64,000 nt of DNA, taken from positions 38,443 through 102,442 of the IMG/VR virus record IMGVR_UViG_3300042934_000619; one strand, given 5' to 3'. Numbering within the stretch: position 1 is the first letter of the stretch; each line of letters opens with the position of its first letter. This stretch comes from a virus. Of the stretch, positions 10,980 through 24,314 are shown piece after piece. The translations under genes were made by a program, and so were the position numbers. The notes under the pieces were generated by a model. The model was not told the DNA's origin. It ran no database searches and saw nothing but the letters and a program-made list of their open reading frames with translations.

Positions 10980-11080
10980 GGGCGGGTAGCTCAATGGGCG
11001 CATGAGGAGGTGGCCACCTTCGATTGCATATGCCGATGGTAGAGCGCCGGAGGTTGCGGGTTCGAGTCCCGTCCCGTCCA
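10980..11080 (+). ncRNA. tRNA-like RNA: expanded D loop, no anticodon arm
   Basis: Acceptor GGGCGGG/CCCGTCC-A, TAGCTC..GAGC D stem, T arm GCGGG-TTCGAGT-CCCGT. Confidence 0.7.
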
Positions 11081-21550: not shown

Positions 21551-21580
21551 TTGACCTTGAGGGCGGGGACCCGATAGGTT
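21551..21580 (+). promoter_or_regulatory. HrdB-like promoter for the Y RNA/Ro60 cluster
   Basis: TTGACC-18 nt-TAGGTT. Confidence 0.6.
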
Positions 21581-21638
21581 GAACACATCGAACGACAGGT
21601 GCGAAGGGTACAGCTGCTTCTTTCGTTCGGAAGTTTTT

Positions 21639-21775
21639 CTGTCTGGTGCGCAGACGACGGATACTTCACTGTTAATGAAGAGGTCCGGGGTTCGAGTCCC
21701 CGCCCGCTGGTAAAAAGGTGGGTAGCTCAGTTGGTAGAGCACTTACGTTTCCGTTGTCGACTTGATCTCAGACAG
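21639..21775 (+). ncRNA. Y RNA 1 (YrlA-like; permuted tRNA-Asn GUU domain)
   Basis: Terminal stem CTGTCTG/CAGACAG with GGTGCG..TGATCT; inside, anticodon arm, T arm, closed acceptor, D arm. Confidence 0.8.
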
Positions 21776-21795
21776 TTCAATTCAAAAGTGCGCAA

Positions 21796-21870
21796 GCGTC
21801 CGGTGCGAAGGCAACGACGGCTACTTCTTTTGGTGAAATCACGCCGTCACGCCGTACTGATCTCGGACGC
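21796..21870 (+). ncRNA. Y RNA 2 (minimal, no tRNA domain)
   Basis: GCGTCCG-GTGCGAAG...TGATCT-CGGACGC; inner stem GACGGC/GCCGTC. Confidence 0.75.
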
Positions 21871-21879
21871 GTACAACTT

Positions 21880-22019
21880 GTGCCTGGTGCGCAGATGAGG
21901 AGTTCTTCGCCTTGGGAGCGGGAGGTCGCGGGTTCAAATCCCGTTCGGTCGGCAGAGCTGACCGGTAGCTCAGTCTGGAAGAGCGCCTACGATCGCCTCG
22001 TCGACTTGATCTCAGGCAC
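21880..22019 (+). ncRNA. Y RNA 3 (YrlA-like; permuted tRNA-Pro UGG domain)
   Basis: GTGCCTG-GTGCG...TGATCT-CAGGCAC; loop CTTGGGA, T loop TTCAAAT, D arm GCTC..GAGC. Confidence 0.8.
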
Positions 22020-22029
22020 GAAAATCAGA

Positions 22030-22150
22030 TGTCCGGTGCGCAGGACGACGCGTTCATCGATGGTTCGACCCCACCCGGGAGTCCCTCGCAAGAGGCTCGC
22101 TCCTGTTGCCCACTTGGGGGCAGCTCGCGTTTCCGATCTGATCTCGGACA
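22030..22150 (+). ncRNA. Y RNA 4
   Basis: TGTCCG-GTGCGCAG...TGATCT-CGGACA; inner hairpins including a GGTTCGA T-loop-like element. Confidence 0.7.
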
Positions 22151-22156
22151 GTACAA

Positions 22157-22308
22157 GGGTGCGTAGCTCAGAAGGTAGAGCGGCCCGAAAACGGACGGGC
22201 GGCGTGTCGAGACGGTTGCGGATGCACCGAATGGCTCTCGCAGGGTCTGTAGGGAAGCGCGTTTTCCAAGCTCGGCTCACGGCGCGGGTTCGAGTCCCGT
22301 CGCATCCA
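22157..22308 (+). ncRNA. tRNA-like RNA with ~80-nt variable-region insertion
   Basis: GGGTGCG/CGCATCC-A acceptor, D arm GCTC-AGAAGGTA-GAGC, T arm GCGGG-TTCGAGT-CCCGT. Confidence 0.7.
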
Positions 22309-22410
22309 CGGCACATAATCGGCTCCGACGTCCCTACTCGACTTCAGTCGTCGGAGAAACGAGGACTCTGGCATTGACGATGGTTATGTCCTCGTTGCCC
22401 CGGCGCAAGC

Positions 22411-22496
22411 CGGGGTTACCCGGGAGGCCCTGGCCAGGCACACGGCTAAAACACCGGCGCACCCGGTGCGAGACGGTTCAAGTCCGTCAACTCCCA
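22411..22496 (+). ncRNA. Degenerate tRNA-like element
   Basis: T arm GACGG-TTCAAGT-CCGTC, variable-arm-like hairpin CGCAC/GTGCG; acceptor and D arm ambiguous. Confidence 0.4.
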
Positions 22497-22498
22497 CT

Positions 22499-22585
22499 GG
22501 TTCCTGGTGCGAAGCCACCACGGGTACTTCATTTCTCTCTCAAAGAAACCCGAACCCCGTATCGGCACCCCTGATCTCAGGAACC
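22499..22585 (+). ncRNA. Y RNA 5 (pyrimidine-rich loop)
   Basis: GGTTCCTG-GTGCGAAG...TGATCT-CAGGAACC. Confidence 0.75.
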
Positions 22586-22631
22586 GCATGACCACCGGCA
22601 CGACCGGTGCGACAGGAAGGAAGATGGAGAC

Positions 22632-24314
22632 ATGGCGCGCTTCAACTCGCGTGGACACCGGGCGAAGCCTGCGGTGGCGACGGTAAGCAGTCCGATCGGT
22701 ACTGCCACGAAGAAGGCGAACACCCGTACGTTCGAAGGCGGCGCGGGATACACGCGTGATGCCAAGACGGAGCTGTTCCTGCGTGCGACCGGTGCGTTCC
22801 ACGGCGGCGAGGGCAGCTTCTACGAGTCCGCCGACAAGCGCGACAACCGGCTTCGTGAGCTGGTACGTACGATCGCGATCGAAGACCCGGACTGGGGATT
22901 CGAGTTCGCGCGCTGGCTCCGGTCCGAGGGTCACATGCGCACGGCATCGCTGATGTTCGCCGTCGAGTACGTGCACGAGCGACTCGATGCGGAAGCGCAG
23001 GAGCCGCGCACCACCAAGTACACCAACCGTCAGATCATCGACGTCGTATGCCAGCGTCCCGACGAGCCTGGCGAGATCCTCGCGATCTGGACGGCGTGGT
23101 ACGGGCGGAACATCCCGCAGTCGGTCAAGCGCGGCGTCGCCGACGCGGTTCGGCGTCTGTACAGCGAGCGCTCGCTGCTCAAGTACGACACGGACTCGAA
23201 GGCGTACCGCTTCGCCGACGTGCTGGATCTGACGCACCCGACGCCGTCCCCCGAGAAGGCCGCATGGCAGGGCCTGCTGTTCTCGTACGCCCTCAACCGG
23301 CGGCACGGACGTGGGGATGACATCCCCAGCACGCTGGATATCATCCGCAACAACGCCTCGTTCCGAGCGCGGGCGGCTGAGACGCACTCGTTGCTGTGCT
23401 CGCCGGACGCTCTGCGTGCAGCGGGCATGACGTGGGAGGACGCGCTGTCCCTCGCGGGCCAAGTAGGCGTCGACAAGCGCAAGGTCTGGGAGGCCATGAT
23501 CCCCTCCATGGGGATCATGGCGCTGATCCGCAACCTGCGGAACTTCGACCAGGCTGGCGTCTCCGACGAGGTGGCCATGACGGTCATGGAGCGCCTGGCC
23601 AACCCCGAGGAGATCGCCCGGTCCAAGCAGTTCCCGTTCCGGTTCCTCGCCGCGCACCGCGCGACCAAGGACTCCCTGCGGTGGGCGTGGCCGCTGGAGC
23701 AGGCGCTTGGTCACTCGCTGGTCAACGTCCCCCGGCTCGACGGCCGGACGCTGATCCTCGTCGACCGGTCGCCGTCCATGTTCCCGGAGTACGACCACTG
23801 GTTCCCGACGCTGAAGAAGTCGGACATCAGCCGCGCCGACCAGGCTGCGGTGTTCGGCGCCGCGCTGGCCGTCCGTGCAGAGCAGCCGACGCTCGTGGAG
23901 TTCGGCGGCGGCTCGCGGGTGATCACCTTCCAGCGCGGTACGTCCGTGCTGAAGCTGGTCGACAAGTTCTACCGGGACCCGGGTACGGACATCCCGAGCG
24001 CGGTGAAGAAGCATTACGACGGGCACGACCGGGTCGTCATCCTCACCGACGAGCAGACCCGCCCCGGGTCCCTTCCGTCGAACATGTGGCGGAGCTACGG
24101 TGGCATGCGTGAGACGGAGGTCAACGACCTCGTCCCGAAGCACGTCCCTGTATTCATGTGGAATTTCGCCGGTTACTCGGCGGCGGCCATGCCGTCCGGG
24201 AACGAGGCGCGGTTCCACCTCGGCGGACTCACCGACAAGGCATTCCAACTCATTCCGATTCTGGAATCCGGAGTGAATGGCAGCTGGCCCTGGGAACTGG
24301 ACAGCACACCCTGA
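22632..24314 (+). CDS. rsr: Ro60/Rsr TROVE-domain RNA-binding protein
   Basis: N-terminal EGGAGY, ALIRNLRNF, SKQFPFRF; C-terminal vWA with VDRSPSM, GTD, ILTDEQ; 560 aa. Confidence 0.9.
   Translation: MARFNSRGHRAKPAVATVSSPIGTATKKANTRTFEGGAGYTRDAKTELFLRATGAFHGGEGSFYESADKRDNRLRELVRTIAIEDPDWGFEFARWLRSEGHMRTASLMFAVEYVHERLDAEAQEPRTTKYTNRQIIDVVCQRPDEPGEILAIWTAWYGRNIPQSVKRGVADAVRRLYSERSLLKYDTDSKAYRFADVLDLTHPTPSPEKAAWQGLLFSYALNRRHGRGDDIPSTLDIIRNNASFRARAAETHSLLCSPDALRAAGMTWEDALSLAGQVGVDKRKVWEAMIPSMGIMALIRNLRNFDQAGVSDEVAMTVMERLANPEEIARSKQFPFRFLAAHRATKDSLRWAWPLEQALGHSLVNVPRLDGRTLILVDRSPSMFPEYDHWFPTLKKSDISRADQAAVFGAALAVRAEQPTLVEFGGGSRVITFQRGTSVLKLVDKFYRDPGTDIPSAVKKHYDGHDRVVILTDEQTRPGSLPSNMWRSYGGMRETEVNDLVPKHVPVFMWNFAGYSAAAMPSGNEARFHLGGLTDKAFQLIPILESGVNGSWPWELDSTP

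Follow-up and report, generated by a model that had tools for sequence, protein, structure and literature searches.

A phage RNA family, probably derived from an arginine tRNA gene, with an invariant arm and a proposed pseudoknot at the anticodon-like loop

What kind of RNA is encoded by a gene that has the arms of a tRNA, but also a large insert in the place of its variable loop? The question is raised by a locus in a 64,000-nt stretch of viral DNA (called the window here), the right-hand part of a complete phage genome of 102 kb that has terminal repeats. A preliminary description, made from the sequence of the window, took the gene to encode a tRNA mimic with an alanine-type acceptor, and suggested that it might act as a decoy for EF-Tu, the ribosome or a toxin, or else represent a new class of non-coding RNA. 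Here we compare the element with its homologues. The joint explanation that fits best is a phage RNA family derived from tRNA-Arg, which would be processed like a tRNA, would have a knotted loop that does not decode, and would present an invariant arm as its working part. We put the probability of this reading at roughly 0.6. The more limited statement, that the element specifies a structured RNA that is processed as a tRNA and does not decode, is very likely to be correct.

The element consists of the following parts, numbered from the first base of the window, with tRNA numbering for individual bases.

22157-22308, + strand: whole tRNA-shaped RNA gene, 152 nt without CCA; the next base, 22309, is C, the equivalent of C74
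22157-22163, + strand: 5′ strand of the acceptor stem, pairing with 22301-22307 (7 bp, read directly)
22166-22181, + strand: D arm, with a 4-bp stem and an 8-nt loop containing G18 and G19; G15 is 22171
22183-22200, + strand: anticodon-like hairpin, with a 5-bp stem (22183-22187/22196-22200) and an 8-nt loop (22188-22195)
83 nt between the anticodon-like hairpin and the T stem, + strand: insert, occupying the place of the variable loop
22206-22211 with 22271-22276, + strand: basal stem of the variable arm
22283, + strand: position 48 (C), partner of G15 (22171) in the Levitt pair
22284-22300, + strand: T arm, with a 5-bp stem and a 7-nt UUCGAGU loop
22301-22308, + strand: 3′ strand of the acceptor and discriminator A73 (22308)

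The preliminary description had listed intact acceptor, D and T arms, a hairpin with an 8-nt loop at the anticodon position, and an insert of about 80 nt bounded by TCGAG and CTCGG. All of these are present, and the bounding sequences form the basal stem of the arm. In the window copy the acceptor has the pairs G1-C72, G2-C71 and G3.U70 (G3 is 22159 and U70 is 22305), and both U8 and A9 are kept. The canonical features of a tRNA are thus found in the 7-bp acceptor with its discriminator, in the D arm with G18 and G19, and in the T arm with its UUCRA loop. What is not found is what is canonical for a decoding tRNA, namely a free anticodon in a 7-nt loop that has U33, and a variable region of 4-24 nt: position 33 is A. 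Reading the insert as an intron was rejected, because no second copy of the 3′ strand of the anticodon stem occurs near the T arm.

Standard searches recognize the element as a tRNA in part. It scores 38.9 bits against the Rfam tRNA model (RF00005), for which the curated cut-off is 29, and in that alignment 95 nt stand where an anticodon arm of 17 nt is expected. When the element alone was compared with Rfam at E up to 10, tRNA was the sole match, and matches to riboswitches, ribozymes, 5S, tmRNA and Y RNA were absent. ARAGORN called neither a tRNA nor a tmRNA at 22157-22308. As the preliminary description had noted, the element has no tmRNA-style tag ORF. The folding energy of the single sequence is about that of its shuffles (z = -0.03), and the case for function must therefore be a comparative one.

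Homologues were collected with exact core motifs, which biases the set to conserved cores. After de-duplication there are 28 distinct members, of 146-232 nt and 43-66% GC. Their sources are 17 records of cultured Streptomyces phages, which fall into four groups, as well as IMG/VR and metagenome contigs (loci are given L numbers below). Megablast of the locus against phage records returned nothing, and relatives surfaced only when blastn was used with a word size of 11. It found the whole element, including the insert, in Alone3, LuckySocke, GiJojo and pSt2308, in the Comrade group, and in Kela and JustBecause; the Satis/Quantum group was added through a covariance model search. Searching for two invariant core motifs brought up 8 contigs in IMG/VR and 24 stretches of metagenome DNA. 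In 185,579 prokaryote genomes, exact matching of these motifs turned up zero copies, although diverged cellular copies could escape a scan of this kind. The family covariance model, R1, gives at least 59 bits to full-length members, 50.8 bits to one truncated copy and at most about 43 bits to ordinary tRNAs; it was quickly calibrated, and its E-values are rough. The window copy scores 170.9 bits, and has the features of the family, namely the tRNA core, AACG in the loop, CGUU after GGGAAGCG in a strand of the insert, and the variable-arm stem.

The element is unannotated in all 17 cultured phage records, and the LuckySocke record has a hypothetical protein annotated across its copy. Searches of Rfam 15 and of the literature gave no description of such an RNA. 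The suggestion of a new class of non-coding RNA is in keeping with this: as judged from these comparisons, the element belongs to an apparently undescribed RNA family, so far seen in phage DNA only. The low-GC members L008 and L027 are uninformative on the host, their neighbouring proteins being 31-37% identical to those of mixed phages. One cultured phage provides a natural deletion: BRock is syntenic with Alone3 but is without exactly the element, the flanking sequences being directly abutted. The element must therefore be dispensable in at least one phage.

Covariation was tested on an 18-member MAFFT alignment, by comparing our structure with 500 shuffles. In the alignment, 95.8% of cells are paired, and both sides have changed in 20 of the 43 pairs. 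None of the 500 shuffles reached these values, and both collapse when the partners are slid. The covarying pairs are distributed over the acceptor (6 of 7), the anticodon-like stem (5 of 5), the basal stem of the variable arm (5 of 6) and the T stem (4 of 5). RNAalifold, run without guidance, predicts matching helices, including the basal stem of the variable arm. Across the 28 members the acceptor is 7 bp long in almost all, with at least 12 different sequences. The tertiary Levitt pair 15:48 also covaries, being G-C in 17 members and A-U in 8. Since both the stems and this tertiary pair covary, we infer that the tRNA core is under selection as a three-dimensional object, despite the insertion of up to 150 nt.

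These results bear directly on whether there is an RNA gene here at all. A decaying tRNA pseudogene would agree with the lack of an ARAGORN call, and a coding sequence with the long ORFs that overlap the element (21880-22377 on the + strand and 21987-22316 on the - strand) and with the protein annotated in LuckySocke; a selfish insertion belongs with these. Explanations of this type are extremely improbable, in view of the compensatory changes in four stems and a tertiary pair and of the invariant core. Moreover, the length differences between members are not multiples of three, and spurious long ORFs are expected at 65% GC. The preliminary description had itself named homologue covariation as a check, and an unconserved insert as the mark of a decaying pseudogene. 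The four stems and the 15:48 pair do covary, and the insert is conserved, with about 26 invariant bases; the element is not decaying.

The insert varies in length between 70 and 150 nt. Its approximately 26 invariant bases are retained even though the GC content of the contigs ranges from 43 to 66% and the tRNA stems drift. Above the basal stem, the insert of the window copy has the following features.

22214-22226, + strand: junction above the basal stem; GG at 22214-15 pairs with CC at 22266-67, followed by a hairpin or linker (22216-22226) with a variable loop
22227-22253, + strand: invariant arm; CC at 22227-28 pairs with GG at 22252-53
22229-32 opposite 22248-51, + strand: internal loop of the invariant arm, with the signature GAA / GUA
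22233-36 with 22244-47, + strand: stem of the invariant arm, 4-5 bp; the terminal loop (22237-43) is variable
22260-22265, + strand: 3′ strand of the proposed pseudoknot, pairing with loop bases 22188-22193 and starting with the CGU codon mimic

The sequence of the junction is nearly unchanged in any member. At 22224-25 there are two alternative pairings, which are inseparable because the bases are invariant. The invariant arm is unchanged in 27 members apart from its terminal loop, which varies in length and sequence, and its helix is also predicted by RNAalifold. The GAA / GUA internal loop looks like a motif of the loop-E or sarcin-ricin type. The arm is followed on its 3′ side by GAAGCG and then by CGUU(U)(U). 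In some clades an additional hairpin flanks the basal stem, either on its 3′ side, where it has a GAAA cap, or on its 5′ side. In the Satis/Quantum group, a longer branched arm replaces the loop-E-like arm, and the loop, the junction and the CGUU strand remain; the loop-E-like arm thus cannot be the sole functional part.

The anticodon-like loop, which is 7-11 nt long across the family, contains (A)AACG, and this is complementary to the CGUU(U) of the insert. At least 4 bp can be formed in 27 of the 28 members; the exception is L035, in which no partner strand is seen. In five members the loop and the insert depart from the common sequences in matched fashion.

L014: loop CAAACG, insert CGUUUG
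L028: loop CAACG, insert CGUUG
L019: loop CAAUG, insert CGUUG
L007: loop AGCG, insert CGUU
L032: loop AACU, insert GGUU

We propose that the loop and the insert strand form an H-type pseudoknot, which would stack on the anticodon stem. Support for it is moderate, because most of the positions never vary. More generally, the core structure is invariant and hence beyond the reach of covariation testing, and covariation is thin for the pseudoknot and the loop-E reading alike, both being composed mostly of invariant bases. An alternative pseudoknot, between ACGGA of the loop and UCUGU of the arm, was rejected, as it is broken in L019 and L027, which keep the CGUU pairing. The triplets paired in the proposed structure, ACG and CGU, are a cognate arginine anticodon-codon pair, and we propose that the RNA would in effect carry its own codon, as a built-in codon mimic. 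Whatever its purpose, the 83-nt arm would tie up the anticodon loop, and the reading of codons is almost certainly excluded. The idea of a non-decoding tRNA mimic, already put forward in the preliminary description, gains support here from the lack of U33, from the loop lengths in the family, and from the complementarity of loop and insert.

The body of the molecule, too, is like that of an arginine tRNA. When ordinary tRNAs are ranked by the family model, the six top-scoring ones are all tRNA-Arg, as are 11 among the best 21. The background in the same loci is 17 tRNA-Arg in 204 tRNAs, giving hypergeometric P values of about 1e-7 for the top six and 7e-9 for the best 21, both somewhat inflated by relatedness among the loci. 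The ACGGA of phage tRNA-Arg(ACG) is preserved in the loop. About 20 of 27 members have A20, but the window copy has U20; C35 and G36 are retained, though they lie within the proposed pseudoknot. In four lineages (Kela, L023, Quantum and L009) the immediate upstream neighbour of the element is a tRNA-Arg(ACG) gene. The family is therefore probably derived from an arginine tRNA gene, namely tRNA-Arg(ACG), and the simplest history is that a tandem duplicate of this gene gained the arm.

Could the element still work as an arginine tRNA? It would then be charged by ArgRS, and would decode CGN or the four-base codon CGUU, or donate arginine off the ribosome. The arginine-like body, with A20 in most members and with C35 and G36 kept, speaks for such a tRNA, and 8-nt anticodon loops, like that of the window copy, resemble those of known frameshift-suppressor tRNAs. 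Nevertheless, we consider this most unlikely. There is no U33, the loop ranges from 7 to 11 nt, the anticodon is complementary to a strand of its own molecule, an arm of 70-150 nt folds toward the loop, and the window copy has U20. In addition, ordinary tRNA-Arg(ACG) genes adjoin the element in the same phages. The arginine-like features support an origin from tRNA-Arg rather than acceptance of arginine.

We turn now to the alanine-type acceptor, which was the central feature of the preliminary description. Its proposal, that the RNA is an alanine-accepting, non-decoding mimic, and that once charged by AlaRS it would divert EF-Tu, the ribosome or a toxin as a decoy, starts from a signature that is real: the window copy has G1-C72, G2-C71, G3.U70 and A73, the signature is shared by L018 and L020, and in all three copies the arginine determinant A20 is missing as well. 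Even minihelices are charged by AlaRS when they bear G3.U70, and alanylation of the window copy, once it has a CCA tail, is chemically plausible by the known rules. However, the combination of G3.U70 and A73 is limited to these 3 of the 28 members. The nearest relative, L034, in which the element also follows a Y unit, has G3-C70 and G73; in the remaining members the 3:70 pair is U-A, C-G or G-C, and position 73 is A, U or G. Acceptor G.U pairs are found in other members at positions 1, 5 and 6, as expected of neutral drift of a helix, and CCA is not encoded. Because the sequence of the acceptor is unconstrained, and because G.U pairs occur elsewhere in it, the signature reads as helix drift. 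A rule by which loss of A20 would mark a switch to alanine was also rejected, since L008, L019 and L035 lack A20 and yet have no G3.U70. The alanine signature thus stands as a description of the window copy but not of the family, whose body is like that of an arginine tRNA, and across the alignment it appears to be a local accident and not the identity of the family. We conclude that an alanine-accepting decoy is quite unlikely. Charging in vivo with any amino acid is doubtful.

The same phage has a second tRNA-like RNA, at 10980-11080, which also has G3.U70. Its 3′ half matches phage tRNA-Ala, and its G3.U70 is for this reason taken to be ancestral and unrelated to the element.

The surroundings of the element indicate how it might be matured. 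It lies head to tail in phage arrays of tRNA or Y-RNA genes, and the spacers to neighbouring tRNAs are 0-22 nt overall. The spacer to the upstream tRNA is 0-6 nt in L005, L018, L020, L019, L027, L028, L035 and L015, and that to the downstream tRNA is 5-13 nt in nine loci. Base 74 is C in 24 of the 28 members, compared with 166 of 204 real tRNAs. An encoded CCA is rare in members and real tRNAs alike, and the window copy has none. The short spacers, together with C74, suggest that the element is probably excised like a tRNA. It behaves as another tRNA gene, and its release would fall to the enzymes that act on its neighbours. Neither a CCA-adding enzyme nor RtcB was found to be encoded in a search of five element-bearing phages, so host enzymes would do the work.

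It might be argued that release of its neighbours is all that the element does, in other words that it is tRNA-shaped punctuation for RNase P and RNase Z on a transcript of Y RNAs and rsr or of a tRNA array, with an idle insert. The tight packing in the arrays, and the position of the L009 copy 45 nt before rsr, would agree with such a processing signal. Yet an ordinary tRNA would suffice for it, and the approximately 26 invariant bases of the insert would have no explanation. We therefore regard it as very unlikely.

In the window, the neighbours of the element are not tRNA genes but Y-RNA-like units and the gene for Ro60. The relevant features are as follows.

21551-21580, + strand: promoter-like site ahead of the array, TTGACC, 18-nt spacer, TAGGTT (read by eye)
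21639-22585, + strand: five Y-RNA-like units, with the element between units 4 and 5
22632-24314, + strand: rsr (Ro60) gene, 560 aa, Pfam TROVE E = 2.5e-21, 323 nt downstream of the element

The promoter-like site was not called by a strict sigma-70 scan. TAGGTT fits actinobacterial -10 sequences, and the site is likely to be the start of the transcript that would carry the element. From here to rsr there is about 1.1 kb of non-coding DNA. Two of the array units give sub-threshold matches to YrlA, of 41.9 and 35.8 bits. The units share the motifs GGTGCGMAG and TGATCTCRG, whose sites in the window are clustered at 21598-22580 on the + strand (6 of 8 and 5 of 6, respectively). The element does therefore lie inside a Y RNA array, as had been described, but both motifs are absent from 22157-22308.

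This neighbourhood suggests a further possibility, that the RNA is associated with Ro60 and works with the Y array and rsr in phage RNA surveillance, as an unconventional Y RNA of normal tRNA topology or as a preferred substrate of Ro60. The association is recurrent. In the window, L034, L020, L009/L017/L033 and the Alone3 group, the element is followed on its own strand by rsr, at a distance of 45 nt to 3 kb. TROVE genes are present in the window phage, Alone3, Comrade (divergent), Kela and Quantum, so that all four cultured groups are represented. However, in Kela and Comrade they are distant from the element, by 36 kb and 10 kb respectively, and a complete 153-kb phage has the element and no TROVE gene. 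Conversely, 43 other rsr loci from IMG/VR have no copy of the element within 5 kb, and BRock, Frankenweenie, VanLee and Atuin carry Ro and are without the element. An obligatory partnership with Ro60 was rejected on the basis of these 43 loci and the TROVE-less phage. The proteins also diverge more than the RNA: annotated actinophage Ro-like proteins are 42-46% identical to the rsr product of the window, and Ro proteins are 35-45% identical while the core of the RNA is invariant. The Y-unit motifs are missing, and the element has no match to YrlA (RF02553) or Y_RNA (RF00019) at E up to 10. A Ro60-associated function is, on balance, unlikely. We read the link with Ro60 as recurrent but not obligatory, and as reflecting a shared neighbourhood of genes for tRNAs and RNA maintenance.

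There is nonetheless a parallel with Y RNAs of the YrlA type (RF02553), which are tRNA-derived and non-decoding and are found near rsr, including in phages (Chen et al., 2014, PMC4201824). YrlA and the element have in common the retention of D and T arms, covariation of the Levitt pair and, for the element in the window and in four lineages, a position near rsr. They differ in that YrlA is circularly permuted, with a loop closing its acceptor, and binds Ro60 through a stem between its 5′ and 3′ ends (PMC4201824). The ends of the element are open, as in a normal tRNA; it has no stem of the Ro-binding kind, and most rsr loci lack it.

Comparison with other RNAs gives likenesses that are also partial. 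Class II tRNAs (Leu, Ser, Tyr and Sec) resemble the element in having an extra helix between positions 45 and 48 in an otherwise canonical molecule. Their arm is roughly 10-24 nt, compared with 83 nt in the element and 70-150 nt in the family; unlike theirs, the arm of the element is branched and would fold back onto the anticodon loop, which is not a 7-nt loop with U33. In tmRNA, too, a tRNA-like acceptor and T arm are joined to a pseudoknotted RNA, and G3.U70 is shared with the window copy. Unlike tmRNA, the element has no tag frame, has a full D arm and an anticodon-like stem, is much shorter, and does not conserve G3.U70. In Stem I of the T-box, a specifier codon beside an S-turn pairs with the anticodon of a tRNA, and a codon-like triplet that lies by a motif of the loop-E/S-turn type and pairs with an anticodon loop is analogous to this. 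It is an analogy only, since in the element the codon mimic and the anticodon would be in one molecule, and there is neither a terminator/antiterminator nor an elbow-binding platform. Finally, species 1 and 2 of phage T4 (rnaC and rnaD) and RNA1 of T5 are non-decoding RNAs with tRNA-like ends that are matured within phage tRNA clusters. The resemblance lies in these traits; the arginine-tRNA-like body, the knotted loop and the invariant arm are the family's own.

The two strands of the invariant arm also have CCGA(A)UGG and GUAGGGAA in common with the helix V/loop E/helix IV region of E. coli 5S rRNA, where these sequences flank a hairpin in matching order; the 5S rRNA segment used for the comparison was verified at 100% identity. 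The likeness spans only about 15 nt and there is no Rfam 5S match, and, as many RNAs were compared, it is offered as a lead only.

Returning to the reading that we prefer, a tRNA-Arg-derived RNA with a knotted loop and an invariant arm, the following sequence of events can be envisaged. The element would be co-transcribed with its neighbours. RNase P would free its 5′ end, and 3′-end processing as for a tRNA would be followed by addition of CCA. The (A)AACG of the loop would pair with CGUU(U) of the insert in an H-type pseudoknot on the anticodon stem, and A33, together with a loop of 7-11 nt held in a pseudoknot, would exclude the RNA from decoding. The tRNA half would provide for maturation and stability, and possibly for access to enzymes that bind tRNA. 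The working part would then be the invariant junction with the loop-E-like arm, displayed on a stable, tRNA-processed frame, and would most likely bind or titrate a highly conserved host protein or RNA. That the invariant arm binds a conserved cellular partner is plausible, though at somewhat less than even odds. Our best guess at the function is accordingly no more specific than a non-decoding, tRNA-framed binding RNA.

A more far-reaching version of this is quite improbable but would have interesting consequences. It supposes that the RNA unites codon and anticodon in one self-contained complex, built on a tRNA body that can be charged, in which the CGU(U) in cis and the adjacent loop-E-like arm hold an anticodon of arginine type in a decoding helix formed in advance. 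Were this true, the complex could present a mimic of tRNA plus mRNA to a universally conserved partner, for example the ribosome, a 5S-binding protein like L25/Ctc, or a defence nuclease directed at anticodons. The RNA could also act as a switch, binding of the partner freeing either the anticodon or the codon mimic, or could be a new RNA-only means of phage counter-defence or a regulator of translation. The amino acid identity would have changed in lineages with G3.U70, such as that of the window.

Several results are new here. They comprise the proposed pseudoknot and codon mimic, the covariation of the Levitt pair, the evidence from C74 and from the spacers, the precise absence of the element in BRock, the replacement of the arm in Satis, the negative result at 43 rsr loci, and the rejection of alanine identity at the level of the family. 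They concern genes that are easily overlooked, since tRNA finders miss them, and at least one genome has a protein annotated across a copy. As the core is invariant across phages of 43-66% GC, its partner would be conserved across bacteria, and this would imply an unknown contact between phage and host in translation or RNA processing. With 17 records of cultured Streptomyces phages, of the SEA-PHAGES type, and a close and cultured relative, BRock, that serves as a natural null, the question is experimentally accessible now. The tRNA arrays of phages are usually read as supplies that serve codon usage or counter anticodon nucleases. The family described here would add to them strongly conserved RNAs that are not adaptors.

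A second tRNA-shaped RNA was found in the window, and the fetched loci contain others, as follows.

Window 10980-11080: tRNA-shaped RNA, scoring 39.4 bits as an Rfam tRNA
L010:4292-4410, (-): further conserved tRNA-shaped RNA type, first copy
L023:3414-3536, (-): the same type, second copy
L007:1836-1962, (-): tRNA-like gene of 127 nt whose anticodon loop carries an insertion of about 55 nt

The RNA at window 10980-11080 holds about 49 nt in its D loop and has a collapsed anticodon arm, and it carries both G3.U70 and A73. It is probably derived from a tRNA-Ala, because its 3' half matches genes that are annotated as tRNA-Ala in the Streptomyces phages Anedea and Riptide. The type shared by the fetched loci L010 and L023 has a class II-like D arm and a long arm, with a 5-nt CGAAA loop in the place of the anticodon loop. 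ARAGORN made no call for either copy of this type, nor for the tRNA-like gene of locus L007.

Across the window and the fetched loci, ARAGORN called 204 tRNA genes; 81% of them have C at position 74, but the full CCA is seldom encoded. This is a 3'-end signature that they share.

Alone3-like phages have a conserved hairpin-bearing stretch of about 90 nt directly 5' of the element (L001:4400-4495), and the same stretch is retained in phage BRock (L046), which has no element. The element's copy in Streptomyces phage LuckySocke (OR725497.1 7771-7918) is overlapped by gene 22, which was annotated as coding for a hypothetical protein, probably in error. The copy at L030:2084-2306 (-) lacks the 5' half and has coding-like sequence joined at the invariant core; it is the product of a deletion or else a chimera of the assembly. 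In the window, the element is separated from Y unit 5 by a 190-nt spacer (22309-22502), which contains several perfect hairpins, one of them T-arm-like (22472-22488), and may be a further tRNA-derived RNA.

Streptomyces phage Comrade has a 562-aa ORF (NC_048728.1 69509-70372) matching the TROVE domain with 78 bits. It was absent from the tblastn listing obtained with the window's Ro60 as query because it is too divergent, and BE-cluster phages may have more Ro60-like genes than have been counted. The leader of rsr, the Ro60 gene of the window, repeats the 5' motif of the Y units (GGTGCGACAG, 22606-22615), 17 nt upstream of the ATG. A similar motif lies upstream of rsr in three fetched loci (L009, L017 and L033). 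The leader motif may be a site at which Ro60 binds its own mRNA.
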